NCBI GenBank assembly: GCA_002269645.1
Contig: NIVC01001189.1
Location: forward strand, 248,001-312,000
Length of the DNA stretch: 64,000 bases
From: Macrostomum lignano
Taxonomy: Eukaryota
Direction of reading: 5' to 3'
Shown: one piece after another, positions 17,298 through 63,916 of the stretch
Layout of the letters: the number at the start of each line of letters is the position of its first letter
Numbering within the stretch: the stretch's first letter is position 1
Position numbers and translations under genes: made by a program
Notes under the pieces: generated by a model
The model's input: only the letters and a program-made list of their open reading frames with translations
What the model was told of the DNA's origin: nothing
Database searches by the model: none

Positions 17298-20097
<2,800 letters not shown>

Positions 20098-21248: not shown

Positions 21249-22181
21249 ACAGCGCTTTTATAATGACTATGGGCCATAGAGTCGTATCTGAGGCGTACTA
21301 TAGTAGATGCAGAATTACCGAGTTGCGTCTAAAGCGCATCTGCGCCATTTTATGAATTCGAAACGCATTTCGTATTTATAACAACTATCATGATCAGTCT
21401 ACGTGACTCAACAGTCGCCTCTCCATCGGATTGCAGTCGGTTGAGTCGTTAAAAAGTCGCAAGAGTCGCTCCAGAGCCGCTAGGGTCACTAGTGGGTGGT
21501 TTGCAATGACTCTTTAGCAATTCTTGTCACGGTAACTTTTCAAAACTTATCATTGGTAGCTTGCCATTTCCGACTTTTAAACCCAAATAAATAAGGATTC
21601 CCTGTTTCTAATCTGTTTACTACATTATATTAAGAGAATTATTAAATAACAGCAAAGAGAAATGTAGGCAAATAATAATAGTTATAACGGACATACATTT
21701 CAGAATGTTTGCATGTCTTTTGTGTTTTGTTTGTTCACAAAAAATATTAAGCAGCCAGCAGCAAGCAACAGAAGAAAACTGTGGAAGGGCTCAGGGGATT
21801 TGGGTAGCGAGAGTTTTCATATCAGATTGAATAAAATAACAGGGGTCACTGGGCCCAGTGGCCTATTAGACAAATTGCTGGATAGTTAATGAATGCTGAT
21901 AAAGGAAAACACAGTACACTGTGAACTTTGAATAAACTATTTAGGTATAGTTTGCCAGCGACTTATTATAGTACTAAAAAAATCCTAAAGTTACACAGAC
22001 CTAATACTCTATACTCTATAAGAGAAAAACCTGTTGCTAACCCATTGCATTATAAACACATCCTGCTCAATTGAGTCGAAAAGTGCCCCACTGGCACTGG
22101 TTAAATTATTTTTTAGTTTAGTCATAAAAGATATCATTTAAAGAGCAAAAACGATAAATCAGGCAATCGGCAATCATCTCT

Positions 22182-25100
22182 TTAGGCATAATAGTTCAGG
22201 CTATTCTTCTTCTTAGCCTGAACCTCCAATATGGCGTCCATGTAGTCCTCGTGTGAGACCGTGGTAGCGCCGCGTCTCAGCGCCAGCATTCCGGCCTCAA
22301 CGCAGACCGCCTTGCACTGGGCCCCGTTGAAGTCGTCTGTACACCTGGCCAGCTCGTCGAAATTCACATCCGGCCGGACGTTCATCTTGCGCGAATGAAT
22401 CTGCATAATACGAGCTCGGGCCTCCTCGTTTGGGGCGGGGAATTCGATTTTGCGATCGAGCCGACCCGAACGGAGCAGGGCGGGATCGAGGATGTCGACG
22501 CGATTAGTGGCGGCAATCACTTTGATCTCCATATTCGGCTGGAAGCCGTCCAGCTGGTTGAGCAGCTCCAGCATGGTGCGTTGAACCTCGCGATCGCCGG
22601 ACTTCTCCGAGTCGAATCGTTTCGTACCGATGGCGTCCAGTTCGTCAATGAAGATGATGGCCGGCGCCTTCTCTTTGGCCAGGGAGAAGGCGTCACGGAC
22701 CAGCTTGGAACCGTCACCGATGAACATCTGCACCAGCTGGGGACCGGCCAGCTTTAGAAATGTGCTTTTGGTCTGCGCTGCGCAGGCTCGGGCTAGCAGA
22801 GTCTTGCCTGGGGGTGGCGGGGTTCGAATACTGGTGATCTGGGATCTACAGATACTGATGGGTGAGCTGGGATCTACAGATACTGATGGGTGATCTGGGA
22901 TCTATAGATACTGATGGGTGAGCTGGGATCTATAGATACTGATGGGTGAGCTGGGATCTACAGATACTGATGGGTGAGCTGGGATCTATAGATACTGATG
23001 GGTGAGCTGGGATCTATAGATACTGATGGGTGAGCTGGGATCTACAGATACTGATGGGTGAGCTGGGATCTATAGATACTGATGGGTGAGCTGGGATCTG
23101 TAGATACTGATGGGTGAGCTGGGATCTACAGATACTGATGGGTGAGCTGGGATCTATAGATAATGATCGGTGAGCTGGGATCTGTAGATACTGATGGGTG
23201 AGCTGGGATCTATAGATACTGATGGGTGAGCTGGGATCTGTAGATACTGATGGGTGAGCTGGGATCTATAGATACTGATGGGTGATCTGGGATCTACAGA
23301 TACTGATGGGTGATCTGGGATCTATAGATACTGATGGGTGAGCTGGGATCTATAGATACTGATGGGTGAGCTGGGATCTGTAGATACTGATGGGTGAGCT
23401 GGGATCTGTAGATACTGATGGGTGAGCTGGGATCTGTAGATACTGATGGGTGAGCTGGGATCTGTAGATACTGATGGGTGAGCTGGGATCTGTAGATACT
23501 GATCGGTGAGCTGGGATCTGTAGATACTGATGGGTGAGCTGGGATCTGTAGATACTGATCGGTGAGCTGGGATCTGTAGATACTGATGGGTGAGCTGGGA
23601 TCTACAGATACTGATGGGTGAGCTGGGATCTACAGATACTGATGGGTGAGCTGGGATCTGTAGATACTGATGGGTGAGCTGGGATCTGTAGATACTGATG
23701 GGTGATCTGGGATCTGTAGATACTGATCGGTGAGCTGGGATCTGTAGATACTGATGGGTGAGCTGGGATCTGTAGATACTGATGGGTGAGCTGGGATCTG
23801 TAGATACTGATCGGTGAGCTGGGATCTGTAGATACTGATGGGTGAGCTGGAATCTGTAGATACTGATGGGTGAGCTGGGATCTATAGATACTGATGGGTG
23901 AGCTGGGATCTACAGATACTGATGGGTGAGCTGGTATCTGTTGAGACTAGCTGTGATGATTTGGAATCTGTAGGGATTAATGGAGATTATCGAGAATCTC
24001 ATTCTAAATTAAAAAAACTATCTTAAAATGCAAAAAGCTACATTTACCAGTGCCAGGAGGTCCATAGAGCAAGACACCCTTCGGCGGCTGAATCCCAATT
24101 GACTTAAATCGCTCCTTGTGTGTCATTGGCAACACAACAGCCTCGATTAGTTCCTAAAAAATAGTACAATTCGTATTGATGACAGCTGAAGGAACTAACA
24201 GTTGAACTGCCGTGACTTCCCGTTCAGTCTCTACAGTTCGGTGCGCGCAATGGTTCAAGACTCAAGTCATTGTCTAGTTCTGAGCCTGGCTATCAAGCTT
24301 TGCAGCAGTTCCCATCCATAAAGCATTAATTAGTTATGCCTACCAGTTTGGTTGCCTGTCTTAGCATTTAGTGTCTGTGTCCGTCTGCGCATCTGCCTGA
24401 CTGTCTGTCTGTGTCTATATTTGCCTGTCTGTCTGTTTGCTTGTGTGCGTGTCTGTGTCTGTCTGTCTCTACCTGCTTGCCTGTCTGTCTGTGTGTGTGT
24501 GTGTGTGTCTGTATCTGCCTGTCTGTTTGTGTGCGTGTCTGTCTCTGTATCTGCCTGCCTGCCTGTCTGCCTGTTTGTCTGTTGAAATATACAGCTGATT
24601 AAACAACAATATACCTGAATTTGCTTATCCAGACCGCCGATATCGCTGTACTGCTCAGTTGGTCTCTCGTCCACCTCCATCGCCTTGACCCTAGAGTCGT
24701 ACTCAGCCGGCAGCTTCTCCAAGATGAGGAATGAATCCTTGTTAACGCCAACCAGATCGGCTGGTTTCAGTTCCTCCGGCGGCACTAGGCCGATAACGGG
24801 CAGGAAATAAGTCTGCCTAGTGCTAGTTTTAATCACGGCCGATTTGCCCTTGCGCTGCGAGTCCAAGTCAACATTGGCGCCGTCGGCCTCTTCGGCAGCG
24901 TCAATGTCCAGCAGTTCAATTACGTTGGACACTAAATAGGGCAGCTGTTTGTTTACTTTAATTTTTTCGGCATTCTCTTTGATCTTTTCCTTCTGAGCGC
25001 TGGTCTCGTGGCTAACCCTGGTCAACTCGGAGCGCATAATTCGTATTTCATTGTCTAGTAGCCGAGTTCGACGAACTATTTCGTCATTCGACATGCGCAG

Positions 25101-28100
25101 CACCTCGTCGCCAAGGTTGTCCTGTCCAGGGATTAAATATGGGCAGTCATTTTTGGTTTTATATTGTCAAAGGTTTTCAGCTGCCTTTTTTGTGTCAGAA
25201 TTGCAGTGCCTTTGGCATCCCAGGTCCAAACTCAGGACAGCGAATGGAAAACCAGAATGCCAGTTGGCATCAGTCAAAATAATCAAAATCAAATGAAATA
25301 TCTAACACCTACCCTATCATTTACACTCCTTTAGTTTGCAGACTTCTTGTTTACAGATTACTCAAATTTGATAATTGATAAAATTCTTAAAATCCTTATG
25401 ATTATACAATCATTGCTACATGTATTTATTCTTTGAAATTAAAATCATAATTTTTGGCAATAAAAAACCTAGATTTTAGCCCTATTGAAGTAAATTGAAA
25501 AAAGGCATAGATGTCTATTAAGCCTGCCAGTGAGCAGGCAAACTTTGATCTAAGGTATGCAGCTATATAGGATCACTGTATATAAGATTACTGGTTCAAT
25601 GGACAAATTACAAATAAATTATTTATCACCAACTGCTTGTGTGTTAACCAGCCCCAGCATGGTATACTACATATACTAAACTAAAATATACTAAAGCATA
25701 CTTTTTAAAAATAATTTTTAAACCTATTTTTTACAATATAGTATATGCAAGTTTTTATTTACCTTTTTTTGCAAAGATGTTGCAAGCCTTTAATATAGGT
25801 TGTCTTTTTTGTTTTTTTCATTTCTCTTTCTAATGATCAGTGACAGTCTTCTTGGCATATTTTTATGTGAAATATGTCTATTGGCATACATTGGCATATA
25901 GGACCTAGGGAAGCAAATTTCATTCTGGTGTATACTATAATACAATCCTATCACTAGTGTGTTAAAGTTAAACATTTGCTTGCAACCATGTGTTTCCTAT
26001 TCTTAAACAAATCATATAGACAGGAAAATGAAATTTTTGAACCAATTCAAATCAATTTTTATGTTTGATAAAATCTATTTGAATATTGACTAATATTGAA
26101 TATGGGTATATTAGTCAATAATATACCCACCTTACTACTTATCAATCTGACCAATAGGCCTACATCTTTCTTTTTATCCAATAAATGCCCTCAAGACCAA
26201 ATGGCCAACCCTACTCTTCCATGTTTTGAGAATTAGTTCCCCATACACCTATGCTCCATAAACTTGATTCTTTATGCTCCACTTTTCCTAAAGCCTTAAA
26301 GCCTCATAAAGCCTCAATTTAAGTATAATATGCTTGCAACTGCTCAAGCACCCAGCTGTTTCTCTTTAAGATATGCCACCTATTATCCCATCCTAAATTT
26401 TCTTTCTCATTTATAAACCATAATCCTTAAACTTGACTTGTCAACTCAAGAACTTTTTTCAAATATTTCTAAATATAAATGATCATTTAAAATTTTCTTT
26501 TCTTAGAATACATTAACAATAGCACAAAGATAAAGGGTTGCAATCAAAAAAGTCATTTGGCATGCTTAGCATGCACGAAAACAGTTGACTAAAAATGTTG
26601 GCATACTTGGTGTAAATTCATAGTAGCTTTGCTCATCTTTGATTCAGATATGCCTTTGCCACTTTCCTAAGCATAGGCTATTTGCCATGCATTTAGAGGA
26701 ATTTCTTTAGTGCTAGCTTCATCTTATCAATGCTTTTGGCCACATTATATACTAGATTGCCTATTATTACCTTTGCTAGGTTTTGACATAAATAGAGATA
26801 TTCCAAACTTTTGATTTTAATTTTCCAAATTTTGTAATATTTAGGAGCAAATTTTGATTTCAAAAAATTTCAGAAGTCCAAATTTTAAAAGTGTCTAGTT
26901 GTGAAATTTTTTATCTAATTTTAATATTCTTAGAAGTTTGTTACTGTGTTGAATCAGTGATATTTTTATACTTTTTAAAAAGTATTTAGATTTATTAAAA
27001 CTGTTTTATAAATATAGCATATTTGCAGAAATGTAGTAAGTTTTTGTAAATTTTGCAGAACTTAACTGTAAAGGCATTTGCTATTATATTGTGTATTTTG
27101 TGCATATTATGTCAGTACAGATACATATACAGTTTATACAATTATGTGTTATTGCTATTCAGTAATATAATGTACATGTATATTAACCTACTAGCTTACA
27201 TTGAGTGATATTACATGTATATATAAAAGATACAAGAGAGACAGACAAAGGCACTATGCATAAAGATAAGTATATACAATGATAGTATACAGTGCCAAGT
27301 CCCAAGGGGTAACTATAGATTTTATAGTTTTTGCAGTGAAAAAGTATTTGAATTCAAAAGAACAATCAGAACTCTATATATCTAGTGACTAATTTATCCC
27401 ATATGCATATAGGCCTATATTTTGTTTTGCATTAGCAGTAAATAAAAAATAAAAAAATGAATGTTGCTCATGCTAAATTTGTTTTTTTGAATTTTGATTT
27501 AGGAAAATTTCAATTTTATTTTCAATTTTGATTTTAGAAAGTAGTGAATTTTGATTTCAATTTCAATTTTGAAAAAAAAAACTTTTAGAATACCTCTAGA
27601 TGCAAATCTTGACACTCATTGTATCATTGTTTCTAATTACTTGTTTCATTGTTTACCAGGTTTGTGTACTAATCTGAAATTAAAAACTTTGAAATTTCAA
27701 ATTGTTAAGAACTGTTATGAATTTCTGGATAGAAAAAAATTATTTTATTGTTTCAATAGATTGGGGTACGTCCAAAAATGCTAAAATCAGCTTCTTAAGT
27801 GAAGAAAATGTAAAAAACATTGAAAAAATACTTTCACAAACAATTTAGGAAGAATACCAAAAGGCAAAACTTTAAGCCTAGTTATGCCTAGTTATATTAA
27901 TAGGCCTAATACAATTGAATTAATTCCATCCAAGCCTTGACATCTTAGAAATCCCCCCAAGCCTTGAAATTACAGCAATTCTCTCAGTAAGCCTTCACAT
28001 TGCAGGATTTCCCCCAGAAAGATGCCAATTAGTTGAGTGTAGTGTACTCTAGTCTAGGCTAGCCAAGCATGATGATGCATCAAACAAACATAATTATTCC

Positions 28101-49786: not shown

Positions 49787-50165
49787 AGTAGTATGCTAGT
49801 AGTACATGATATTGTGCATGTAAATTGTTTGCATATACCGGCACTAGTAGTACAATATGATTGTGTACATGTACACAGCTTGCATATACTAGTAGTACAA
49901 TATGATTGTGTACATGTACACAGCTTGCATATACTAGTAGTACAATATGATTGTGTACATGTACACAGCTTGCATATACTAGTAGTACAATATGATTGTG
50001 TACATGTACACAGCTCGCAAATACTAATAGTACATTATGATGGCGTACATGTACACAGTTAGAATATACTATACTAGTAGTGCAATATAACGGTGTAAAT
50101 ATGTACACACGGTTTGAATCTACATTGTACTAGTAGTACTATATGATTGTGTACTTTGTGTACTT
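49787..50165. repeat. 45-bp minisatellite with a 16-bp palindrome (tgtgtacatgtacaca); continues at 63917-63980 beyond the LTR element
   Basis: Unit tactagtagtacaatatgattgtgtacatgtacacagcttgcata. Related units resume after the right LTR. Confidence 0.9.
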
Positions 50166-51200
50166 TATACGCGTCTTTCTCTGGGGCCTTTGAGTTCGAG
50201 TTCTCACTTTCTTAAGATAGATGTCTAGCGGTCTAAGGTTCTTACAGCTCTTAGTCTCTCCTATCAGGCCGTCAGAGAAGACCGTATAAACTGACGGGAT
50301 CTCCTAGTATCTAAGCTGAGTTGGAGTCTCCCTAAGATTTGCTCTATGTCACAGTTAAGGCAAATGATCGATTTGAGACTCGGGTTTCTGCCAACTGGAT
50401 AATCCAGAAACTAATTCAAATGGAGCAATTCAAGATCGAATAACTGCGCAGGAAAAACGAAGCGCCGCTCCAGTTTGAGATGAGCGTCTATTTGTACCAA
50501 TTAGCATGTTTGGCCTCCCCGCCGCCGGTGGGGTGTCTTCGCGTTGTTAGCAACGGCGGGGGGTTTTGAGCAATAACAAACTGGGACTCAGTCCCCTAAT
50601 TGTACATGAATTTAGTTAGTTCTAGTAGGTTGCTAAGTGTGAAGGTTAGAGATTATTCGGGCTTTCGCAAATCTATGTGTTGAGTTGGATAAAATTTGGG
50701 ATAGAAAGATTATAGAAAAAGTGCTTAGTTTTCCGTCTCTACACTCTGTCCATGAATGATTAAACAGTCCTCTGTTTCTCTCGGTTGTCAGGCAGCTTGG
50801 GGTTGATCTCGCCTTCTTGGGCAGCTTCGGGTTGGGTAGGAGTCTCTAGGTGGGCCTCACGTTTTCTCCCTCAGGGTGCGCCAGAAGATGCCGCGTGCCG
50901 CGTTGTTCTCTAAGTCAGGCTGCTGCTCAGTTTGCTTTTCCCGGCCGGTTTAGTCGCCATTGTGCCTGCGGCGGGGTGACGCTACTAACTGGAATGGAAG
51001 GAGGCTTTGTTAGATTCGGCTATTCAAATTGACTTGACAGTTGATTAATTATCTTAAAGCTGCTTCTGTTTGCTCTTCTAATAGCTATCTAGGGGTTCCA
51101 TTGTACTCTTCTGCCTCGCCCTTCACTGCGCCTGGGCTTTTCATAAATTTCTACCTATCTTCTAACTTGGGGTCAAAACTTCAGATTTCTAACTCTTATA
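50166..51200 (-). repeat. 3' LTR (1035 bp)
   Basis: Direct repeat of 62881-63916. The offset changes from 12715 to 12716 at a C4/C5 run. Confidence 0.97.
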
Positions 51201-51203
51201 TGA

Positions 51204-51217
51204 TTCCCCCTTTTTTC
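51204..51217 (-). other. Polypurine tract GAAAAAAGGGGGAA
   Basis: Purine run on the minus strand ending 3 nt before the 3' LTR. Confidence 0.9.
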
Positions 51218-51420
51218 GAAATCCTTGTGCTAACAAGGATTTGATCAATCGACATCAGGGCTAAACGACATTGCAGGTACTGAAATTATCAAATATAAGA
51301 CGTTAGAAATCTGTATACGAGTCAAGCGTCTGGAGACGTAGATAGTTAAAGGTGTAAAGAGGCGAAACCTGGGAAATTAATTGAGGGGAAACAGTTCACA
51401 GTCGTATCTATGGGCCGTAT

Positions 51421-51738
51421 TTAGTCATCTTCAAGTTGAACATTGCCGCTTCTGGCCCATAGGTACTGACGATATCCCTGCAGTGTGGGCCAGGGTCGAA
51501 TGGTACTGGAGGCCGTGTAGTCGCCTCCCCTCCACGGTATCTCCGTGGGGGTCATCTCGCGTCCCCACTCGGCGTCGTTGTCAACTTGGGTGGCCACTGA
51601 ATGGCCCCCATCTATGTCGCTCTCGGCGACTTGCGTCTGCGCATCCTTTTTGATGCACTTGTGGACGTGGAGATTTACGTCCACAAAGGCTTCGCCGGGT
51701 CGCCGAGCATAAGCGTCTTCGGGTGAGTAAGTGGCCAT
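51421..51738 (-). CDS. Accessory ORF B (105 aa), unknown function
   Basis: True ATG (cccATGG) 10 nt after an acceptor-like ttaatttcag (51757-51748). No recognisable domain. Confidence 0.45.
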   Translation of the reverse strand: MATYSPEDAYARRPGEAFVDVNLHVHKCIKKDAQTQVAESDIDGGHSVATQVDNDAEWGREMTPTEIPWRGGDYTASSTIRPWPTLQGYRQYLWARSGNVQLEDD

Positions 51739-52054
51739 GGGAATGCTCTGAAATTAAGCAAGAGTGTGCTATTGATTTTCCGTGTGGCGGTTTTAGTGTG
51801 TATCGTCCTTGGCCTAAAGCTTCGCTTAGCGGTTCGACTGTACATTAGATCTATCCCCTGCGTACATGGGGTGGTGGGTGTGGCGGGACGCATGGGGGAG
51901 GGGTTTTGAATCTGGACTTGGAGCCGCAGGGGGGGTCCTTTCTTTTCTAATCGCCGGCTCCTTCCGTTTTTAAACGCGGCGCATGTGAGAGTAGCCCCTA
52001 AAGTTATCTATTCAGCTTGTTTTCCGATTGCCCTTAACGCTAACTGATCTCATT

Positions 52055-52315
52055 ATGTCTGAGTTTGCTATGCAACGTTTGATTCGCATTATTGGCGAGT
52101 TGAAGGAGCGTCTACACGCCGTGGAAGACCGGTCTGTCGGTCTCGAGCGGCGACTGCTTTACTTGGAATCACGATCGGTTTCGCAAGATTATGGGCTACG
52201 TACACTACAAGGTTGGCTGGGCGGAGTGGGGGGCGGCGGCCTCCTCCTGTGTCTACTCCTAGTTCTATTATTCTGCTGCCTCTACCGGCGTCGTTACCAG
52301 GCCCTACCTGCCTAG
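52055..52315 (+). CDS. Antisense accessory ORF (86 aa): coiled coil + C-terminal TM helix + basic tail
   Basis: ATG at 52055, heptad-like Leu spacing, GGGGLLLCLLLVLLFCCL followed by YRRRY, and AATAAA at 52448-52453 on the same strand. Confidence 0.55.
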   Translation: MSEFAMQRLIRIIGELKERLHAVEDRSVGLERRLLYLESRSVSQDYGLRTLQGWLGGVGGGGLLLCLLLVLLFCCLYRRRYQALPA

Positions 52316-52794
52316 TAAGCAAAATGATTGCATTGATTAGATTATTTAATAACAATATATATTCGGGAAGTCTATTTTGTATGTCATAAACATGGTTATC
52401 AATCGGGTGTATAAGTGTCAGTGGGCGTCGAATATCACGACGTTGAGAATAAAGAGTAACATAGAGAATATATCGAGAGATACAATTCGGGTGCAAAAAT
52501 TATCAGGATGAGCAATATTTGTGGATACAATTTGTTTCAAGGTTAATGTGGTTAGTGTTAGATTATATAGCGTTGTAGCTCGCTTCAAAATTCACTTTCG
52601 TTTGGTCTAGTCTTATCCCAAGAGTAGACCGCCCTGCTGTGAGGCTGCATTGAACAAAGGAGCGTACCTGTGGGTGAAGGTGCCTCAGGGATGAGGCGGA
52701 TTGGTATCCCACCAATTCGCTACAACCCTAGGGCAGTATTTCATCCCTTGTATTATCCTTTTGTTCTCTTGCAACCGGGCCTTCCTATAGCACC

Positions 52795-53577
52795 TCAAGG
52801 GTCCAGGTTGGGGCCTTCTGCTGCTTTCAACGCTGTGAAAAGGTGGTGCCATTGTAGGTTGGCCGGTGAATACGCAATCGTGGCTATCGATTGCCGTTCC
52901 TTGGGTTTGATTTCGATGCCGTGATAATTTAAGGTGTTGAGTAGATAAGTGATAAGCATGTCGGCTTGGAGTGATAGTGTGCTGGTCGGTCCACGAGGAT
53001 GGATTAGGGTTGTCGTCACCCTGCTGTTCCATACTATGATACGGAGACAAGAGAACGCAGCTGTGTCGTCGTAGAGGAAAAAGAGCGTCGTGTTGAAGTT
53101 CAAGATAGAATAGTCAGAGAGTAACCAGCGTGGGTCTTTAGGATCTGACAGGATGCGTCGCGTAGTAAGGTGTGTGACGATGTTAGCGGGTATTAGTGGC
53201 ATGTCAAGCATCTGCTGGTGAATGTCAAACAGTTTCGTTTCATCATACCGCGCCGGCTTGCTTTGAACTACCGTCTGTGCCGCCAGAGCTGTTTGGAATC
53301 GCTCTGCGAGTGTTTTAGCCTGGTGGAAATCGTTGCTCGCCGATGTTGCCGTGCTTGCTTGTCGTGGGAGCGTAGGTCGGCGTCGTTGCCATTCCTGTCG
53401 TAGCTTGTCCAGCTGTTGTTCTGTCCATGTTGACATATCTTGCTCGGGCCACTTAGGGTCATCAGTTTCGGTGTGAGATGTTGGCTTGAAGAGAGGTCGA
53501 ACTATAGGACACGGTGTCTGGGTATCTTCGTCTCCCAGGGTACAGTCATCTAGCGTATCGAGCTGTCGGTCATACAT
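52795..53577 (-). CDS. Accessory ORF A (260 aa), unknown function
   Basis: ATG immediately preceded by ...aattactcattataccag (acceptor-like). Long open frame with natural-looking composition and no recognisable domain. Confidence 0.65.
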   Translation of the reverse strand: MYDRQLDTLDDCTLGDEDTQTPCPIVRPLFKPTSHTETDDPKWPEQDMSTWTEQQLDKLRQEWQRRRPTLPRQASTATSASNDFHQAKTLAERFQTALAAQTVVQSKPARYDETKLFDIHQQMLDMPLIPANIVTHLTTRRILSDPKDPRWLLSDYSILNFNTTLFFLYDDTAAFSCLRIIVWNSRVTTTLIHPRGPTSTLSLQADMLITYLLNTLNYHGIEIKPKERQSIATIAYSPANLQWHHLFTALKAAEGPNLDP

Positions 53578-53737
53578 CTGGTATAATGAGTAATTTTAGA
53601 AGGGTAAAATTAAGTATTGATATTTGAGTGAATAGTTAGTGTGGATATCTATATCTAGTGTGCACAGCACGCCAACGAATGAATACGTAAATCAAATAGT
53701 CTTTATAGTCTCTGTACTCTCCCCCCATCTCCTGACA

Positions 53738-56700
53738 TCATTTGTCTAGGAGTATGGGTTTGCTCCTTAGATTGTACTTCTTTCGAACTGTGTCCGCGAG
53801 CGTCTCGTCATCAGCTTGTACGCCCACTTCCTTGCTGAACAGTTGCCGGTGCTGGCGTTGCAGTCTTCGCGGATCACTCGGGCGCAGATCGGGGAGCAGT
53901 ACCTTAGGTGTTGGCGATGCTATTGGCTTTAGCCTGTCCGTGTGCACCTGAAAGGGTTCTTGAGTCGGATCGTCAATTTTCCTTATCATGACGGACGTGA
54001 CACTATTTCTTTTCACAATTTCGTATGGACCCGTGAACTTGGCTTGATGCTTTCCCTGTCTCATTGGGATCTGTAGCATAACTCTGGTGCCTATGGCTAA
54101 TGTAGGGGCCATTCGGTTTTTGTTAGCTCTGCCTGTGTTCTTTTCCTGGGCCACTTTGAGATGGTGTCTGGCTATGTCTCTAGCCAGGGTGATAGCTTCT
54201 TGCATTCGGGCTGCATAGGACGGCTCATCCATGTATCTTACTAGGTTCAGCTGAGTTGTGAGCTCTGTGGGCATCAGGGGTTTCCTTGCGAAAACCAATT
54301 CGAAGGGAGAATAAGTTGAAGAGGATTGCTTGGCTGTATTGTAGGCGTAGATTGTGGCTGATAGATATTTATGCCATTCGTTTGGATTCTCCGCAGTGTA
54401 ATGTCTAAGCATGTTATGTAGGGTAGAGTGTAGTCTCTCTACGTGGTTTGCTTGCGGATGGTAGGTAGACGAGAAGATGTGCTTGACTCCCAGAATTTCT
54501 AGAGCTTCCGCTAATAGCGATGCCGTGAAATTTTTTCCATTATCGGTGGAAATTTCCATCGGGATTCCAAACATACAGAAGACTTGGAACAAAGTTTCGG
54601 CTGTGGTTTCTGCTGATAGATCTGGAATCGGGAATGCAAAGGCGAATTTTGAAAAACAACACAGGATAGTCAGGATGTGGGTGACGGTCTCGTTCCGGAT
54701 TTTCGTGGGGACCATGGGTCCTACTAGGTCTACTGATAGCTTGTCCATTGGTTTCATCGGAATTTCAGGCATTTGGATGAGTCCCTTATGCAGTTGGCCA
54801 GATTTGTTCTTAGCGCAATCCATGCAGTCTTGACAGAAGGTTCGAATATCGGAAACCATTGAGATCCAAAAATAGTGTCGCCTAATTCTTTCTAGGGTTT
54901 TGTCAAAGCCTAAGTGCGCTGCTAGTGGTAGTGCGTGTAACGAGTGGCAGATTGTTTCACGGTACTTGAATGGGAGCACTATTTGTTGGGTGTGATCTGC
55001 TGTCCTGTGAATGATTCCGTGAATATCCGCATAGTCCGATAGATGTCGCTGGATGTGTCTTTTGTATCTCATAGCTAAGCTGTCATCCATGGGCTTTTGT
55101 TCCCATAGTGCTCGAATGCCTTGGCAGAATGGGTCTTCTGCTTGAGCCTCTTTTAAGGCTTGCAGGTGTGGTATCGGGTGCTTGATCGTGACAAAGTTAA
55201 TGGGTGTCTCTTGGTCCTCATATAGTCTTGAGAGTGCGTCTGGGACTGCGTGTTTGGTGGATGCGCCTGGGACGTACTCAATTTGCATTTGAAACTGTTG
55301 TAAATAGAGAAGCCATCTGAGTACCTGATTGTTCCGCAGGGTTTTCCCTGTGAGTAGACCTCTGAGTGGTGCATGATCTATTCTTAGCAATGTGGGTATT
55401 TGTGCTGCGTACAGAAATTGTTCGAATGTCTTGAATGCGTAAAAGACGGCTAAGAGTTCTAAATGGGTGACCGCATATCTTGTCTCTGCCTCTCTCAGTT
55501 GTCGACTCGTGAATGCTATTGGTTTTTCTTTTCCTGTCTCATCTTTCTGTGAGAGCATTGCGCCTATGCCTTTTGTAGAAGCGTCGCTGGAGACAATGAA
55601 CTGTTTATTAAAGTCAGGGTGAGTGAGTCTGAGATCTTCTGCTATCCATTTTTTCATGTCTTCAAAGGTCTGGGTCGCTTCTTCTGTCCACTTTAGTGGG
55701 GTTTTGGATGCTTGAGCCTTAGTGTTCGGTGTGCCCTTAAGCAGGTCTGTGAGTGGCTTGGCTTTCTTGGCGTAGTTAGGTACGTGTTTGCGAAAGAAAT
55801 TGCAGAGTCCTAGGAAACATCTGAGCTGTGTGACATTTTGTGGCTTTGGTACCTTCTGCACTTTGTCGACTAAAGCTCTATCAATCTGTATTCCATTTTT
55901 GTCTATCTTATGTCCTAGGAATGTGATTGTGGGCTTAGCGAATTTGCACTTTTGTAATTTCAACTTCATGCCGTACTTTCCTAGAGCTTCTAGTGTAGCT
56001 TTCAATGTCTCGAGATGGTCTTCAAATGTCTCATTGAAGACAAGTAGGTCGTCTACGTATGTTGAGACTCTGTTAATCCCTTGAAGGATTAAGCTAGCTG
56101 CTCTAGAGAGGGCTGCTGGTGAGGTTTGTAGACCCATTGGGGCTCTGGTGAAGACGTAAGTTTGTCCGTCGGGCGTGGAGATGCCACAATACTTCTGACT
56201 TTCTTCTTCTAGCGCCACTTGAAAAAATGCTTGCGCCATGTCGAGAGTAGTGAAATATTCTGATCCCTTTAATTTGGCTAAGAGGTCTGGGATTCGGGGC
56301 ATGCATTGCCTTTCTGGGACCAGGATTTGGTTGAGGTCCCGAAAATCAACACAGAGACGGTACACTGGTTTGGCTTGAGGCGATTCCGGTTTCTTCTTGA
56401 CCAATAGAATTGGTGAGATGTACGGGGTGGCTGCTTTTCTAAGAATTCCTTGCATTTCCATTCTATCGATGATTTTCTGGAGTTCTCCCGTGAGTTGGTA
56501 TGGGATTGGGTACCGTTTGTTGAGCTTAATCTCCACGTTAGGCTTAATGTGAAGCTCGTGTTTCGCTACATCTGTGTATCCTATTTCCTCCTCGGATAGG
56601 CAAAAGGCTTTCTTGTTGTCCCAGAGAACCTTAATGAGCTGTTCTTTCTGGGATTCTGTCAGGTTGGATCCTTTGAGATCAATGGCGTTCTTGAACTCTT

Positions 56701-59700
56701 GTTCCGTCATTGTTGGGGTTTCTGACTGGATTTCGGCAATTTCAAAGGCTTGGATTTCTGTATCGAAAGATCCTATGTTGGTGTCTGGATATAGTGTCAT
56801 TGGGGTTGCCGATTCGTTTGAAATGATGACTTGAACCTCTCCTGACTCGTCAGGGTATACCAATTCGGGTGTAAGGCAAATGGGTTTCTTCTCTAGGATA
56901 CGTTCGTTGGGTTCGAAAAGCATAGCTGGAGGTAGTTTCTCTCTGGCGATGGCTCTTGCGGAAATTCGAGTTGTTTCCCATGGATTGAGATTGACTGTAG
57001 AGACTAATCTGATGCAGTTAACGGGTTCTTTTGTAGTGATAGCGAGGATGTCATAGCATTTCCCGTTGAGATGGATATTCTGTTGCTGATAGTTTACGAG
57101 CACGCCCTGATTTAGTTGAGATAAGTAATCGATGCCTAATAAGACTTGATAAGTTCCTGAACTCAAATTGGGAATAACGTGGAACTCAACGTCAGCCGTG
57201 GTGTCGCCAGCTTCCACAGGGAGGTTGATCATGCCGGATTGCTGTAGTCGTGAGCCTTGTACTCCTTGCAGTTCAACTGTGGCCGGCTTGAAGGTCCTGC
57301 CGTATCGCTTTGCTGTGGCTTCGTCGATTAAGGATCGTTCGGCTCCACTGTCGATCAGGGCTCGGCAGGATCGCGTTCCCACTTGAAGTCGGGTGATTGT
57401 GTACTTCTGCTTCTGGCCGTTGTTGACCGTCGCCACCATCGGAGGTGGCCAACTGGACTCTATCTTCGGGTAGAGTCCTGTTGATGCTGGTGCTGGTGGC
57501 GTCCACGGTGGCGGGCGCTGTGGTGCCTGTCTGGTTGTCGTGGTCTCCTGCCGCGTGTTCTGGCTTGTCGAGTTCGCTACTAGCGGTGCTCGTAACTCCT
57601 GTAGCTCCTGCTGTTCTTGCTTTGCAGCAGCTTTGCGCTGGATCGTGCGGATGCCAGGACGTTGGTACTTCTGTTTGTTGAGTCTGTGGCAGATAAGGAT
57701 CATTTGGTATAAAAGATATATGTAGAACCCAATGGCAGCTACTCCTACAGCGATATCGAAAAGATTCACTCGCATGCCTAGCCATGGTAGCCAACTTGCT
57801 GGATCAAAGGTGCCTTCCGCTATGGTGGCATCTAACGGTGGAAGATGTATAGAGTGAGAGGTTTCTGACTTGGGCAGTTTGAAAACAGTTCTTAAGAACT
57901 CTCTCTGGTCATTTAGCTGGTTGTACAAGTCGTGTACTGTGACCGGGCTTTTGAGATCGGCTATCCTGATGTCTCCATCAGGAGTGAATATGACATGCTG
58001 AATCTCTGGGGGTTTTATGAGGGTTACCCCCCACGCTTCTCTTTCTAGCTTAGTGACCGTTTGCACAGTAAATTTCGTAAAGTTGAGGTCTGTTTTGTAG
58101 ATTTCGTCTCCTTTTGGTAGGAAATACGACGTTTGGTTAGAGCAATCGTGAAATGGCGGGTGTTCCTTTTGGATTTCCAGGGTTCTAACATCTAGAAAGC
58201 CTGTGTGGTTCATGTTGAATATCGTGAAGGCAATTGGTGGTTTGGTAAAGCAGATATTCTCATCCCATCTTGGTTGGTGAAAACGAAAGTTTCTGATGGG
58301 TAGGCACTTAGAAATGACTACATGCTGTGCTAGCGTGGTGGCTTTTAATTGGCTGTCTTTGAACAAAGTGCGCGCTGCTAGGGTGGGCTGCATAAGAAAA
58401 AGATCTTTTATGTACCGAAACAGTGTTTGCTGATGCTTGCATTGTTGTAGTATCATGTTTCGAGTAAGGTCGCCTATTCTGTCTTCCATTGTGAGTTCTA
58501 GCCCTTGTAATTTTGCTGCTAGCGTTGTGTCCGATGTGAGGTCTCGTTTTGGTCTCTTAGCGGTGCTTGAATTGTTGAATGAACCTTCAATTATGCTGCG
58601 AAACTCTTGGTCTGAGCCGTGCACCTGGACTAGTTTACCTTGTTCCGACTTGTATAGCTTTACTGTCGTGTCTCCACATTGTAAGTCCTTAGTCTGAGGT
58701 GGATGTTTGAATGTGAGGGCAAACGTAGCGTCGTTAGACATGAACCATCCAGTGTGAATTTTGCCTTGAATGAATCTGTCTGTTTGATAGGGGCAGTCTA
58801 TCTCTGCGCTGGGTGTCCATACTAGGCGGTATTGTCTATCTCCTCTCACTGTGTAGCTGAGATCATAGTATTCCATTACGGCCCAGAGTCTGTCTGGTGC
58901 CTGTCGGTTCAGTGGCGAGTCCTTCTCTGCCGTGAGGCTAGTAGTCGTGGTACAGGTTCCTGTCTTGTAGTCGCATTGACCTATAGGGAGGGCTAACGAA
59001 GACATCTTTTTCTCTTCCACAAAGAATGAGACCTGGGTGATTAGGACTGACACTGTTTGAGTGAAGGTTTGAGCTGTACTGGCTGTAGGTTCCAATTCCT
59101 GGGTTGTCCACTTATGGGTAATGAATCTTTTAGCTTGTCCCATAGCCTTAGTTCCTGCTTCTAAAGTCCCATCTTGGGTTCGGGTGTTTTCTTCCCATGT
59201 TTTACAATCGTCCTTCGAAACTGAATGTTGTTGCACAGTAACAGTCATGGCTGGACTTACCACTTGTGATGTTACAACAATCTGTGGCTTACTCGTGAAC
59301 GTGTAGGTCTCTCGGTAACATATCTTCAGTGTAGACCGGTGTGATACCTGGTTCTCCTTGTAGACTGTGATGTTGATCGGTTGCCGATGCTGTTGAATGC
59401 TACTCGGGACTGTGCATTCGATGTCCGGAGGCAATTTGAAGGCTTGAAGGCTGTTCGCTTCTGGGCAGTAGAGTGGTGTGTCCACGTAGCTGCTGTGCTG
59501 TGCCGTTGTTGCGTTGCCAGCCGCGGTGCAGAACAGTGCGAGCAGTACTATTCGCAGCAGCCATCCTGTGGTTGAGGCTGTTCGTCGGCTTTGGCTCCAT
59601 GTCGGTGTAGTTCTCGGCTGTCGAATCGCTATCTGTGGCTTGGGCTCGTCAGTGTCAGGACATTTCTCGATCTTCTGTGGTCGCTCTTGCTTCTCCGTCC

Positions 59701-60919
59701 GGTCGCTCTCGGAGCGCGGTGTTAGTGTCGCCGTCGTGATGTGGCCGATCTTGACCTTGACTGCCTTGCGAAGTTGTCGCTTGGCTTGAATGATGTCGTC
59801 GCGGGTTACCACTGGTTCCGTAACTGTCTCTTCTTGCTTGGTTGACTCTGCTGGAGTGTCCGTCGGTGGCTGTTGCTGAGGCTGCTCCTTGGTTACTTCT
59901 GCGGTTTGCCGTGGTTGCGGTGTTGGTGTCACCGCTGTATTGTAGCCAATCTTGACCTTGGCTGCCTTGCGAAGCTGTCGTCGAGCTTGAATGATGTCGT
60001 CGCGAGTTACCACTGGTTCCGTAACAGTCTCTTCTTCCTGGGTGGACACAGCTAGAATGTCTGCCGGTGGCTGTTGCTGAGGTTGTTCCTCGGTTACTTC
60101 CGCGATTTGTCGTGGTTGCCGTTGCTGATTTGGTCGGCCGTTGTTGTATTGAGGACCTTGGTAGCCGTTATTCCTGTTGCTCGGGTATCCTTGACGCTGA
60201 GCCGGTTGGCCCTGTCTCTGGGGGCTCGGGCGATCGCATTCAACTGTCCAGTGAGACTTCTGCTTACAATGGTGACAATAACGTCGGCACTGAGCGGCCA
60301 AATGGCCAGGCTTACCGCAATTGTTGCAGTTTCTGCTGGTGCCTCTGGCTCCTTGTGGCTGTTGACGGCTGCTTCCTGGGCTGGCGCCTTGCTGTCGGTT
60401 GCGCTGATAGCACCTGTCTGCCGTATGTCCCTGCTTCTGACATAACTGGCAGCTTGTCGCGGCGTTTCCGCTTCGCGGGCGTGGATTGTTCCATGGCTGT
60501 TGCGGTCTGTTGTTCACTGTCTTGATCGTCGCCTCCATCTGGGCGACCAATGCCGATAGCTTGCGGGTGTCCTCGGTTTCTCGCTCAATGTCGTGAAGTG
60601 CTTGCCATTGCAGTGCCTCTCGAGTCATTTCCGTCACTGTTTGATAGCGTCCTCTGGCTAGGTGAAGTCGTAGTGCCGGAACTGCGTTCTGCTGGACGTG
60701 TAGCATGATGTGATCTTGAATGATCCGTTGGTTCCTCTGTCGCCGTAGTGCCGCATCTGCTGCATTTTCTTCTTCCGGGGCTGGTTCTTGATAGACGGAG
60801 TTCTCGACCAGGTTGGTGATATCTGCGATGAATTTGTTGACGTCTTCTCCCGGTTGCATCTTGCGGGATGCCAGTTGTAGAATCGCCGTTGATCGGTCCA
60901 TCCTTCGGGTGTCGAACAT
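53738..60919 (-). CDS. Gag(C-terminal)-Env-PR-RT-RNaseH-IN polyprotein, 2393 codons from the first Met of this frame (frame is open further upstream to ~61115)
   Basis: Three CCHC knuckles 60451-60236; signal peptide 59566-59516; furin RPKR 58555-58544; TM 57754-57689; protease DSG 57352; RT YVDD 56059-56048; RNase H SDAS ~55585; IN HHCC plus DLVGP/TDNG/VERLH (54730/54544/~54440); GPY 54031-54023. Confidence 0.95.
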   Translation of the reverse strand: MFDTRRMDRSTAILQLASRKMQPGEDVNKFIADITNLVENSVYQEPAPEEENAADAALRRQRNQRIIQDHIMLHVQQNAVPALRLHLARGRYQTVTEMTREALQWQALHDIERETEDTRKLSALVAQMEATIKTVNNRPQQPWNNPRPRSGNAATSCQLCQKQGHTADRCYQRNRQQGASPGSSRQQPQGARGTSRNCNNCGKPGHLAAQCRRYCHHCKQKSHWTVECDRPSPQRQGQPAQRQGYPSNRNNGYQGPQYNNGRPNQQRQPRQIAEVTEEQPQQQPPADILAVSTQEEETVTEPVVTRDDIIQARRQLRKAAKVKIGYNTAVTPTPQPRQTAEVTKEQPQQQPPTDTPAESTKQEETVTEPVVTRDDIIQAKRQLRKAVKVKIGHITTATLTPRSESDRTEKQERPQKIEKCPDTDEPKPQIAIRQPRTTPTWSQSRRTASTTGWLLRIVLLALFCTAAGNATTAQHSSYVDTPLYCPEANSLQAFKLPPDIECTVPSSIQQHRQPINITVYKENQVSHRSTLKICYRETYTFTSKPQIVVTSQVVSPAMTVTVQQHSVSKDDCKTWEENTRTQDGTLEAGTKAMGQAKRFITHKWTTQELEPTASTAQTFTQTVSVLITQVSFFVEEKKMSSLALPIGQCDYKTGTCTTTTSLTAEKDSPLNRQAPDRLWAVMEYYDLSYTVRGDRQYRLVWTPSAEIDCPYQTDRFIQGKIHTGWFMSNDATFALTFKHPPQTKDLQCGDTTVKLYKSEQGKLVQVHGSDQEFRSIIEGSFNNSSTAKRPKRDLTSDTTLAAKLQGLELTMEDRIGDLTRNMILQQCKHQQTLFRYIKDLFLMQPTLAARTLFKDSQLKATTLAQHVVISKCLPIRNFRFHQPRWDENICFTKPPIAFTIFNMNHTGFLDVRTLEIQKEHPPFHDCSNQTSYFLPKGDEIYKTDLNFTKFTVQTVTKLEREAWGVTLIKPPEIQHVIFTPDGDIRIADLKSPVTVHDLYNQLNDQREFLRTVFKLPKSETSHSIHLPPLDATIAEGTFDPASWLPWLGMRVNLFDIAVGVAAIGFYIYLLYQMILICHRLNKQKYQRPGIRTIQRKAAAKQEQQELQELRAPLVANSTSQNTRQETTTTRQAPQRPPPWTPPAPASTGLYPKIESSWPPPMVATVNNGQKQKYTITRLQVGTRSCRALIDSGAERSLIDEATAKRYGRTFKPATVELQGVQGSRLQQSGMINLPVEAGDTTADVEFHVIPNLSSGTYQVLLGIDYLSQLNQGVLVNYQQQNIHLNGKCYDILAITTKEPVNCIRLVSTVNLNPWETTRISARAIAREKLPPAMLFEPNERILEKKPICLTPELVYPDESGEVQVIISNESATPMTLYPDTNIGSFDTEIQAFEIAEIQSETPTMTEQEFKNAIDLKGSNLTESQKEQLIKVLWDNKKAFCLSEEEIGYTDVAKHELHIKPNVEIKLNKRYPIPYQLTGELQKIIDRMEMQGILRKAATPYISPILLVKKKPESPQAKPVYRLCVDFRDLNQILVPERQCMPRIPDLLAKLKGSEYFTTLDMAQAFFQVALEEESQKYCGISTPDGQTYVFTRAPMGLQTSPAALSRAASLILQGINRVSTYVDDLLVFNETFEDHLETLKATLEALGKYGMKLKLQKCKFAKPTITFLGHKIDKNGIQIDRALVDKVQKVPKPQNVTQLRCFLGLCNFFRKHVPNYAKKAKPLTDLLKGTPNTKAQASKTPLKWTEEATQTFEDMKKWIAEDLRLTHPDFNKQFIVSSDASTKGIGAMLSQKDETGKEKPIAFTSRQLREAETRYAVTHLELLAVFYAFKTFEQFLYAAQIPTLLRIDHAPLRGLLTGKTLRNNQVLRWLLYLQQFQMQIEYVPGASTKHAVPDALSRLYEDQETPINFVTIKHPIPHLQALKEAQAEDPFCQGIRALWEQKPMDDSLAMRYKRHIQRHLSDYADIHGIIHRTADHTQQIVLPFKYRETICHSLHALPLAAHLGFDKTLERIRRHYFWISMVSDIRTFCQDCMDCAKNKSGQLHKGLIQMPEIPMKPMDKLSVDLVGPMVPTKIRNETVTHILTILCCFSKFAFAFPIPDLSAETTAETLFQVFCMFGIPMEISTDNGKNFTASLLAEALEILGVKHIFSSTYHPQANHVERLHSTLHNMLRHYTAENPNEWHKYLSATIYAYNTAKQSSSTYSPFELVFARKPLMPTELTTQLNLVRYMDEPSYAARMQEAITLARDIARHHLKVAQEKNTGRANKNRMAPTLAIGTRVMLQIPMRQGKHQAKFTGPYEIVKRNSVTSVMIRKIDDPTQEPFQVHTDRLKPIASPTPKVLLPDLRPSDPRRLQRQHRQLFSKEVGVQADDETLADTVRKKYNLRSKPILLDK
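57689..59566 (-). other. Envelope glycoprotein domain (class III fusogen, gB/chuvirus-G-like) inside the polyprotein, ~aa 452-1078
   Basis: Hydrophobic leader WLLRIVLLALFCTAAG, Cys-rich ectodomain with N-glycan sequons NAT, NIT, NNS/NSS, NHT, NQT and NFT, furin site RPKR, gB-like QPTLAARTLF...VISKCLPI, and a C-terminal TM helix. Confidence 0.8.
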
Positions 60920-61029
60920 TGCCCGTAGTGCTGGTATCAGTTCCTCGTAGTTCAGGCGAGTTGCCTCGTCCAGAGTTGAGTATTGATTGCGAGCATTCGG
61001 TCGTAGCAGTAGTGGTAGTAGTCGACATC

Positions 61030-61322
61030 TCTCGCATTTCCCAGTCCATAGTTTGCGCTTGAAGTTCGAACTCTCGTAACCAACGGACGAATGAGCGTCC
61101 CATTTCGTAGTCTCCTACTGATAGCTTGATGGCTTGGACAACTGTCGGTAGATCTCGGGTCTGCTGCAGTGCCAATTGTCTTGTCAGGTCGTTGATACGC
61201 TCCTGTAGTTGCGCTAAATCTTCGGCCATGTTGTCTTGTAGTGCTTCTTCTGGTTGTTGCTGGTCTTGTTGAGGATCGTCTTGATGCAAGTCTTCTTGGT
61301 GCTGTTCTTCTTGTTGAAGCAT
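61030..61322 (-). CDS. Gag N-terminal portion, separated from the polyprotein frame by a +1 frameshift near 61045-61025
   Basis: ATG at 61322 gives MLQQEEQ...GRSFVRWLREFELQAQTMDW. The capsid-like continuation ERCRLLPLLLRPNARNQYSTLDEATRLNYEELIPALRAMF is in the polyprotein frame. Confidence 0.75.
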
Positions 61323-62865
61323 GCGCCTTCTGGCTTGGGCAGTACGTCGATTGTTAGGTAGACCTGTAGGGTCTGGAGCTTGGTAATCTTCCAAAAAGTG
61401 AGGATGCGCTTGTAAACGTTGCGGTGTGGGCCGCAAAAAATTGGTACGATTCAGGTTGCAAGTAGTATAATAAAAGACAAACAAAATATCGTTGGCAGTG
61501 CTGGTCTGCTAGTGAGCAATTAAACGGTTTTAAATAGACAAATTGAGAAGGGGCAGAGGTTAGGATACGCTTCAGGCTCAGGCGGTGCAGTCGAGGTGGG
61601 TTTTGTTGTACCAAACAATTCGCATTTGTTGTAAAATAATTATAGTGTTGCTATATGCATTTTGTCATAGTGACTGTCATTTCAAGCAATAAAACAAAAT
61701 TCCGCATTTAACGTTTATGCAATATAACGCAAGATGTGTACTTATTGAGAATTAAATTGACTGTGCCCGCAGGCTTTGGAGTGTGCCGGTGCAGCTATGA
61801 ATTCGAAGGCAACTGGACAATTTCATTTGAATTGATTCTGCTTGGCTTTGTTATGTGCGCCTAATAAATGGTTAACAATATAATTCAATCAAAAGTAGCG
61901 CTTCTCCTGGAATGGCTAAGGTTGCGCAGCTGGAAATAGCGGAATGCTGTAGTTATTTTTAGTATCACTCATTTCTGCGGGCTTTCCCGCTGTTAGCAGT
62001 ATTATGTTGGCTTGAGATGCCTTGAAAAGTGAGCTCAGTATTAACGAGGGTTTATGTAGCTATGCCTGGTGGGGCAGACGTGTTAGTTTAACAACCCTAA
62101 GACACTACACTGGCAGGGTGCAGTGACACGGGCGGGCGTCTGTGCAGAATGGAAGTGCTAGGCAGGGAGATGCCCGATCCGGATAAGGACATCTCAGTGA
62201 CTCGCACCTCTATTCTTTACGTCAACCCTGCTGCCGAGAGTAGAACTCTCCCCGCAAGGACCTGCCTTCCCGCGGGCCAAACTCGCGCGCGCAATTAGTA
62301 AAGTGAGCTCCTTAGTGATCAGTCGATTAAAGTGATCAAAAGTAATTCCCGTGCACGGTACTTGCCATAGCTTGTGGCTGGATTATTGCCATACCTTGTG
62401 GCTGGATTATAAATTACGGATCCGTTTCAACAGAAAATGATTATTCAATTGTTAGACAAAATCAATTATGGTATCCAGGTAGCTACCCTCTTAGACAGTG
62501 TTAAGTGATTAAAATTGATTAAATTCTCTTCTACGCGAACAGATAAAGTATGGTTAGTCTATGTGTCCACTGGCAGTGAAACGCTGTTCATCACCAGGGA
62601 AGGTAATACAGTTAATTGTTTTTGTTAGTTTTCGAATTTTATCAATTTTTTTTGTTCGTTTTAGCATTTTATCAATTTTTTCTTTTTGAATAAGGACGCG
62701 TTTGTGTCCTTCTACGACACAGAGTAATTACGTAGAAAGAGAATTAAAAGGTGACTGCACTCATCCTGGCCTTCCACGCTCCGTCCTCCGCCGATGAAGT
62801 TACTCAGCCATACCGGGCGATCTCGTCAGGTGAAAATCGAAGAGCTGTTGATCAGATGACTCCGA

Positions 62866-62878
62866 GGTCAGGGAACCA
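62866..62878 (-). other. Primer-binding site TGGTTCCCTGACC, complementary to a tRNA-Glu-type 3' end
   Basis: Starts 2 nt after the 5' LTR. The plus strand reads ggtcagggaacca, which matches the metazoan tRNA-Glu(CTC) 3' end ...GGTCAGGGAACCA as recalled from memory. Confidence 0.8.
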
Positions 62879-62880
62879 CT

Positions 62881-63916
62881 TATACGCGTCTTTCTCTGGG
62901 GCCTTTGAGTTCGAGTTCTCACTTTCTTAAGATAGATGTCTAGCGGTCTAAGGTTCTTACAGCTCTTAGTCTCTCCTATCAGGCCGTCAGAGAAGACCGT
63001 ATAAACTGACGGGATCTCCTAGTATCTAAGCTGAGTTGGAGTCTCCCTAAGATTTGCTCTATGTCACAGTTAAGGCAAATGATCGATTTGAGACTCGGGT
63101 TTCTGCCAACTGGATAATCCAGAAACTAATTCAAATGGAGCAATTCAAGATCGAATAACTGCGCAGGAAAAACGAAGCGCCGCTCCAGTTTGAGATGAGC
63201 GTCTATTTGTACCAATTAGCATGTTTGGCCTCCCCCGCCGCCGGTGGGGTGTCTTCGCGTTGTTAGCAACGGCGGGGGGTTTTGAGCAATAACAAACTGG
63301 GACTCAGTCCCCTAATTGTACATGAATTTAGTTAGTTCTAGTAGGTTGCTAAGTGTGAAGGTTAGAGATTATTCGGGCTTTCGCAAATCTATGTGTTGAG
63401 TTGGATAAAATTTGGGATAGAAAGATTATAGAAAAAGTGCTTAGTTTTCCGTCTCTACACTCTGTCCATGAATGATTAAACAGTCCTCTGTTTCTCTCGG
63501 TTGTCAGGCAGCTTGGGGTTGATCTCGCCTTCTTGGGCAGCTTCGGGTTGGGTAGGAGTCTCTAGGTGGGCCTCACGTTTTCTCCCTCAGGGTGCGCCAG
63601 AAGATGCCGCGTGCCGCGTTGTTCTCTAAGTCAGGCTGCTGCTCAGTTTGCTTTTCCCGGCCGGTTTAGTCGCCATTGTGCCTGCGGCGGGGTGACGCTA
63701 CTAACTGGAATGGAAGGAGGCTTTGTTAGATTCGGCTATTCAAATTGACTTGACAGTTGATTAATTATCTTAAAGCTGCTTCTGTTTGCTCTTCTAATAG
63801 CTATCTAGGGGTTCCATTGTACTCTTCTGCCTCGCCCTTCACTGCGCCTGGGCTTTTCATAAATTTCTACCTATCTTCTAACTTGGGGTCAAAACTTCAG
63901 ATTTCTAACTCTTATA
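62881..63916 (-). repeat. 5' LTR (1036 bp)
   Basis: Direct repeat of 50166-51200, flanked by the PBS on one side and the TSD on the other. Confidence 0.97.

Follow-up and report, generated by a model that had tools for sequence, protein, structure and literature searches.

The nematode endogenous retroviruses (NERV), metaviruses that are the subject of a 2022 paper by Sacco et al. in J Gen Virol (pmid 35550022), reportedly carry one continuous gag-env-pro-pol open reading frame (ORF). The flipped order of env and pol was first reported for nematodes by Sacco et al. (2022), as cited by Chary and Hayashi (eLife 2026, PMC13524379), who themselves describe Ty3/gypsy errantiviruses of the order GAG-ENV-POL, with an Env of the gB type, in Nematoda, Bryozoa and Platyhelminthes. 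The main text of that paper, figures aside, makes no mention of polyprotein processing, splicing, frameshifting, a single ORF, late domains, ESCRT or budding, and discusses neither the topology of a fused chain nor motifs of the tail.

The element considered here lies in a 64,000-nucleotide stretch of Macrostomum lignano DNA (contig NIVC01001189.1, positions 248,001 to 312,000; hereafter the window) and joins this known type, the gene order GAG-ENV-POL being already published (PMC13524379). As described in that paper, the published elements share with it the gene order, a gB-type Env flanked by a signal peptide or TM helix and by a TM helix, and the presence of several near-identical copies, and the likeness rests on order, Env fold, flanks and copies. 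From the sequence we consider it likely that the element makes one Gag-Env-Pol polyprotein that is threaded through the membrane, with the cleavages and the tail-borne late motifs proposed below.

The element, its reading frame and its relatives

The element occupies 50,166-63,916 on the minus strand of the window and is a young LTR element of the Ty3/gypsy type, an assignment that rests on the LTRs, the primer binding site (PBS), the polypurine tract (PPT), the target duplication and the Pol order PR-RT-RH-IN (Pfam families and domain order). Its 5' LTR (62,881-63,916, minus strand), with TATA...TATA ends, and its 3' LTR share 99.9% identity across 1038 nt, and a 5-bp target duplication, AAGTA, is recognized in the flanks outside both LTRs. 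A putative PBS-like sequence with TGG lies 2 nt past the LTR (62,861-62,878, minus strand), and no tRNA genes were found within the 64-kb window. At the other end stand the PPT and the 3' LTR (50,166-51,217, minus strand; PPT 51,217-51,204, LTR 51,200-50,166). Both LTR termini (window 50,166 and 63,916) read TATA, not TG...CA, and the insertion site is a 45-bp tandem repeat (49,789-50,163, resuming near 63,930). Elsewhere in the window, frames with introns at 15,285-25,166 presumably belong to host genes for a WD40 histone-binding protein (RBBP4-like) and a proteasome ATPase (PSMC3-like).

A single stop-to-stop frame of 2458 aa runs from 61,114 to 53,738 on the minus strand and holds, in order, Gag, a hydrophobic leader, a gB-like class III Env, its TM helix and tail, and PR-RT-RH-IN. 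Residues are numbered here from the start of this frame, and the original prediction counted from Met66; since the 5' part of gag in the window copy sits in another frame, with a break near 61,030-61,050, the first residue of that count is an internal methionine and not the real start of Gag, and gag ATGs are present in this copy at 61,322 and 61,229. The break is missing from the sister copies L028 and L029 and from contigs of all four of the four sequencing runs, and must therefore be specific to this copy or an assembly error rather than programmed recoding. A programmed frameshift in the window family was rejected on the grounds that this break is unshared and that the frame breaks of the other copies in the genome are scattered; two slippery heptamers are in register, both within integrase.

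Gag (60,239-61,322, minus strand; PF00098) has three CCHC knuckles, at aa 222-293, besides its capsid region. Pol (53,738-57,424, minus strand; Pfam) comprises PR, a 90-aa spacer domain, RT, RNase H and integrase, with the DSG of the protease at 57,352, the spacer at 57,022-56,750 and the YVDD of RT at 56,059. The spacer is present in many relatives too, and its matches in the Atlas database, at 0.95-0.97, are unnamed eukaryotic clusters; it may have a dUTPase-like fold, which is a guess. The polyprotein ends in YNLRSK (53,759-53,776, minus strand), and 9 of the 18 integrase-bearing relatives have a [YF]xLR motif among their final 40 residues; we take this type of C-terminal motif to resemble the chromatin-binding motif of foamy viruses. 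Downstream of pol lies an additional ORF of 266 aa (52,795-53,595, minus strand), which is probably a real accessory gene because five copies of the same family keep it intact and a sister family has a version of about 43% identity; it has no convincing Pfam family, and its Atlas matches are at chance level only. The remaining 3' region (51,218-52,790, about 1.6 kb) contains a plus-strand ORF of 106 aa (51,995-52,315) with a hydrophobic stretch and a basic end, and the 1.5-kb 5' leader (61,323-62,860) contains several upstream ATGs.

Ninety-two env matches were scored in the element's own genome, 17 of them inside open frames of at least 2300 aa; the continuous ORF said to mark NERV is thus seen in 17 of 92, and the window copy is broken in 5' gag. 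Twenty loci were taken for comparison. Five copies are near-identical (97-100% amino acid identity in env, 98-99% DNA identity), and seven families, whose identity to the window protein is 23-61%, have a common layout and form an env clade separate from the database relatives in a quick tree. L027 is a deletion derivative without 1.27 kb around the gag start, and L010 (L010/L034) is another in which the first half of env is joined to an integrase-type C-terminal end. In the families L024 and L026 the ectodomain contains, beside the furin site or sites, an insertion of 220-280 aa that is rich in Thr and Pro and mucin-like. A profile search returned 502 relatives at E <= 0.001, of which the best 150 were used together with the protein P0001. 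Among these 151 proteins, Gag or its knuckles, Env and Pol stand in one chain in 33, Env and Pol in 27, and Gag and Env in 23, and the other 68, many of them short, have neither Gag-Env nor Env-Pol; in none of the 151, among the matches listed, does RT, RH or IN stand ahead of Env. Named examples of the Gag-Env-Pol chain come from Caenorhabditis tropicalis and Globodera rostochiensis, some records being gene models that may join exons, and a word-indexed search for full-length relatives gave one match among 4424 candidates. P0001 has one additional protease-like copy after the Env tail, and P0011 has several, before and after Env. The near-copies P0002 and P0003 of families in the own genome were left out of the leader, tail and tree counts.

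Env, its leader and the two sides of the membrane

The ectodomain (57,755-59,515, minus strand), which contains 12 cysteines and 6 sequons, matches PF24664, a fusion glycoprotein family of the Monjiviricetes type, at E 6e-8, above the curated cut-off. An AlphaFold model of modest quality (pLDDT 63, pTM 0.41) retrieves herpesvirus gB (E 9e-22) and nyavirus G (E 5e-27) in Foldseek, at TM-scores of only 0.2-0.3, and a sequence search of the PDB with Env gave three chance matches only. On the profile match and the model, Env is identified as a class III fusogen fold like that of gB and mononegavirus G. The putative furin-type site RPKR (58,544-58,555, minus strand) has an R-x-K/R-R counterpart in 12 of 12 own-genome ORFs examined. 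The ectodomain is followed by a predicted stop-transfer TM helix (57,689-57,754, minus strand; aa 1121-1142, by hydropathy) and, in the window family, by basic residues. Across 115 ectodomains 563 sequons were counted against 400+-18 expected, and the Gag and Pol domains show no enrichment (102 vs 94+-9). The original prediction placed Env in the lumen, with the TM helix stopping transfer and the tail and Pol remaining in the cytosol, and the sequons, the charge and the TM helix all argue for this arrangement.

Ahead of the ectodomain lies a predicted internal signal sequence (59,516-59,563, minus strand), with a basic n-region, the h-region WLLRIVLLALFC, which starts at aa 518 (59,563), and the c-region TAAG, and cleavage would fall near aa 532-533. 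The earlier observations that no in-frame methionine lies between about aa 130 of the original count and the leader and that no pyrimidine-rich acceptor precedes it are both borne out: the stretch from residue 194 to residue 622 has no methionine inside it, and the best of 30 YAG sites (60,250-59,560) has pyrimidines at only 8 of 13 positions. A hydrophobic 11-residue core stands just ahead of the ectodomain in 56 of 57 Gag-fused relatives, as against 5 of 36 upstream control windows. In 46 of the 57 the Gag side of the leader has the higher net charge, in 9 the two sides are equal, and in 2 the Gag side is lower. Together with a small-x-small site after the core, these traits are consistent with the prediction that an internal signal translocates Env, and the profile of the leader is that of a cleavable signal used internally. 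An Arg inside the h-region of the window copy speaks against this reading. It had also been proposed that signal peptidase frees Env from Gag. Signal peptidase cuts on the lumenal side; the cut would therefore free Env, as proposed, and leave Gag tied to the membrane through the leader stub until the viral protease cuts at IAEV or ILAV.

It is unlikely that the leader is instead an uncleaved signal-anchor and that a two-TM Env keeps the cytosolic leader after removal of Gag, in the manner of the foamy leader peptide. Ectodomains of the gB type are described as flanked either by a signal peptide and a TM or by two TMs (PMC13524379), the leader peptide of foamy viruses forms a stable type II subunit (PMC7828637), and the median hydropathy over 19 residues differs little between the leaders (1.87) and the TMs (2.11), but 51 of 57 relatives have the small-x-small site behind the h-core (39% of control windows), the h-region of the window copy is only about 12 residues long and contains an internal Arg, and the cytosolic linker before the leader is unconserved, varying from 56 to 538 aa. 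Very improbable is the reading in which the signal, with more than 500 residues made before it emerges, frequently goes unrecognized, so that much of the chain stays in the cytosol and supplies Gag and Pol for ordinary intracellular retrotransposition, and only a fraction makes Env. Such inefficiency would solve the problem of stoichiometry without recoding, but very divergent relatives retain the leader, the cysteines, the sequons, the furin site and the TM, which argues that translocation is at least selected for.

Separate RNAs could also supply the products, with env spliced out to give Gag-Pol, or with Env-Pol translated from an ATG of its own or from an upstream exon, as in foamy viruses, which have spliced pol and env RNAs (PMC7828637). 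The missing methionine does not rule this out, because an upstream exon can supply an ATG, and five families (L021, L022, L024, L026 and L040) do have a methionine 12-27 aa ahead of the leader; yet over all relatives there is no excess of such residues (18 of 57 with one at most 30 aa before the leader, against a background of 39%). In the window copy, likewise, donor-like sites lie close to NC and an acceptor-like one at the end of the TM, but these are mutually out of frame and not common to other families, and an in-frame pair of donor and acceptor that would skip env occurs in none of the seven families. Spliced subgenomic RNA was the observation named in advance as contradicting the polyprotein, and no splice joint within the ORF was found in the contigs of runs X1, X2 and X8, which come from three studies, are guessed to be RNA and cover all 30 bins, and in which rare forms are dropped; one X8 contig spans 54,562-62,909. 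A lone joint in gag, in run X15, was rejected as a splice: its ends are not GT-AG and it matches the genomic deletion in copy L027. Any RNA that retains the TM would, moreover, still fuse Pol to Env, and we regard separate RNAs as an improbable source of the products. The read depth over the LTR is flat in X1 and about tenfold in X15, a weak hint at most.

Predicted cleavages, tail motifs and the supply of Pol

The catalytic Asp of the protease (aa 1255; 57,352) lies 113 aa after the TM. Between them, the Env cytoplasmic tail or Pol leader (57,437-57,688, minus strand) has about 85-88 aa, of which an 88-aa count gives 13 K/R, 11 Q and 13 P, in agreement with the basic, Gln- and Pro-rich linker of about 110 aa described previously. 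The four recurring border motifs of the original prediction were all found, RQIAEVT at aa 335, DILAVST at aa 352, DILAITT at aa 1355 and FEIAEIQ at aa 1457; the pattern I[AL][AE][VI], chosen post hoc, occurs four times against a shuffled mean of 0.33, a count reached in 1 of 2000 shuffles. The exact pattern is peculiar to this family, being present in 1 of 50 tails and in 3 of 57 linkers, and similar protease-type motifs occur in 45 of 57 knuckle-to-leader linkers versus 18.7 after shuffling. The sites at which retrotransposon proteins are cleaved are described as having hydrophobic residues at positions -2, +1 and +2 (PMC11299033).

These motifs were predicted to release Pol. The notion of protease processing at hydrophobic four-residue sites is retained, and the assignment of Pol release to IAEV and ILAV is not: none of the four motifs lies between the TM and the protease, and by their positions they would serve to release Gag or to cleave within Pol. 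The putative sites IAEV and ILAV (60,047-60,106, minus strand) stand between Gag/NC and the leader, in a linker that carries a 201-nt tandem duplication (59,716-60,117, minus strand) whose downstream copy, with RQTAEVT and DTPAEST, has lost both motifs, and ILAI, IAEI and INFV stand at domain borders of Pol. The likely site of separation of Env and Pol is VATV (57,425-57,436, minus strand; aa 1227-1230), which begins at 57,436 on the border between tail and protease and had been overlooked. In 23 of 50 relatives the catalytic Asp is preceded, at a distance of 16-34 aa, by a [VIL]-small-small-[VILM] tetrapeptide, a pattern chosen after viewing the alignment of relatives; of other tail windows 6% contain it.

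The late domains of retroviruses, PTAP, YPXL and PPXY, are described as binding TSG101, ALIX and NEDD4-type ligases (PMC8952333). Motifs of these types (PT/SAP, YPx[LIV], PPxY) occur in 21 of 50 tails between TM and PR, against 3.8+-1.8 in shuffled tails, and outside the own genome in 15 of 43, against 2.9 by chance; reversed controls gave 0, 0 and 2. For these counts, 55 of 153 Env proteins that have no TM by our own rule were dropped, and 48 with a TM and no PR motif were counted apart. In the tail of L021 a stretch of 20 residues combines all three types, and 29 of the 50 tails have none. The window copy has only a near-match, the YPxL-like LYPKI (57,475-57,461; Ile, not Leu), plus PPAP (57,499), where the sister family L031 has PSAP. 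In the quick env tree the motifs are scattered, with 20 label changes, at least 13 of them forced. Tails without a protease behind them also carry the motifs (11 of 46 versus 3.2), which may therefore be a trait of the Env class rather than of the fusion. Late-like motifs are slightly raised in Gag N-termini as well (11 vs 6.5; 28 of 500 shuffles), PPxY occurs in 4 of 57 knuckle-to-leader linkers (36 of 1000 shuffles), and dileucine and Yxx-hydrophobic sorting motifs, with 13 tails, show no clear enrichment. The tail motifs are upstream of the predicted VATV cut and would therefore stay on Env, and the pattern suggests a budding that is driven by Env through its tail. A search of the openly accessible literature did not find late domains described in Env tails of this kind.

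The single frame, the order of domains, the fusogen fold and the conserved patterns of leader, TM, charge, sequons and motifs are seen directly, and on them a pathway can be built in which every cleavage, the translocation and the binding of ESCRT are predicted steps. A full-length RNA would be translated into one Gag-Env-Pol polyprotein, Gag being made in the cytosol until the internal signal after the NC region directs the ribosome to the ER, with the N-terminal side held in the cytosol and the fusogen passing into the lumen. The TM would halt transfer and leave the tail and Pol cytosolic, signal peptidase would separate Env from the leader, and a furin-type protease would cut RPKR. The element's own aspartic protease would cut at hydrophobic [VIL]-x-x-[VILM] sites, after NC, which takes Gag off the leader stub, at VATV, which frees Pol, and at borders inside Pol. 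The tail of about 85 aa with its ESCRT late-domain motifs would remain on Env, and Env would probably recruit the budding machinery.

In this pathway Gag, Env and Pol would be synthesized 1:1:1. An open frame implies equimolar synthesis and not equimolar particles: Tf1, with a single ORF, is described as reaching a Gag:IN ratio of 26:1 through degradation of Pol (PMC7175516), and the particle ratio would here, too, probably be adjusted by turnover. Some lineages appear to uncouple Pol from Gag-Env, by recoding or by absence of Pol, given that the chains of several relatives stop directly behind the tail of Env. In each of two env clades all five proteins are of this kind, and three records of a Caenorhabditis angaria family (P0052, P0152 and P0154) stop at RVRIN, a point at which the sequence of a relative runs on as RVRINMI in the direction of the protease; this stop at the junction of tail and protease is a candidate read-through or frameshift site. 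A metagenome scan found no DNA context for the relatives that end after the tail. Whether Pol travels with Env is a separate matter. The original prediction had Pol ride on Env until budding, which is possible and somewhat doubtful; there is a slightly better case for trimers of Env bringing three proteases together at the ER and so releasing Pol early.

A broader and more speculative extension of the polyprotein pathway is that the usual division of labour is inverted. Gag might have no membrane-binding head and be brought to the membrane by the signal stub at its C-terminus, the tail of Env might carry Pol and recruit ESCRT, and particles might bud under the control of Env with RT and IN brought in on the glycoprotein, some lineages tuning Pol by a stop or frameshift at the junction of tail and protease; we hold this only tentatively. 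C-terminal tethering of Gag is the reverse of the usual retroviral geometry and is unexplained in the proposed mechanism.

Comparison with known systems

The layout fixes the place of each product of this polyprotein, which bears on how env-carrying retrotransposons outside insects may assemble and leave cells, and the cuts are predicted to the residue, near aa 533 for the signal, at aa 857 for furin and at aa 337, 353 and 1227 for the protease. If the tail motifs work, a budding signal of a retroelement has moved from Gag to Env, and there is a way of packaging Pol that needs no Gag-Pol fusion.

The plan of the polyprotein has a parallel in flaviviruses, where the capsid protein ends in the signal of the next glycoprotein and host peptidases act on the lumenal side while the viral protease acts in the cytosol; these are RNA viruses with a class II fusogen and no reverse transcriptase, unlike the window element. 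Among retroelements, Tf1 of fission yeast (PMC7175516) is likewise of the Ty3/gypsy type with one ORF and equimolar synthesis, but has no Env. Foamy viruses, as described in PMC7828637, also place a membrane-spanning leader with a cytosolic N-terminal side before the fusogen and do not package Pol as Gag-Pol, whereas their Env and Pol come from spliced RNAs and here all three lie in one frame. Atlas virus (Belpaoviridae; PMC9094657) is likewise described as encoding Gag, Pol and Env in one stop-free polyprotein for which internal entry into the ER is needed, but its order is Gag-Pol-Env, its C-terminal Env is of the class II, phlebovirus-like kind, and nothing is tethered behind the TM. What the present analysis adds to the published GAG-ENV-POL type, on sequence evidence, is the late-domain motifs of the Env tail and the lineage-specific stop at the junction of tail and protease. 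The motifs are the same as the late domains of retroviruses described in PMC8952333, which retroviruses carry in Gag and which stand here in the tail of Env.
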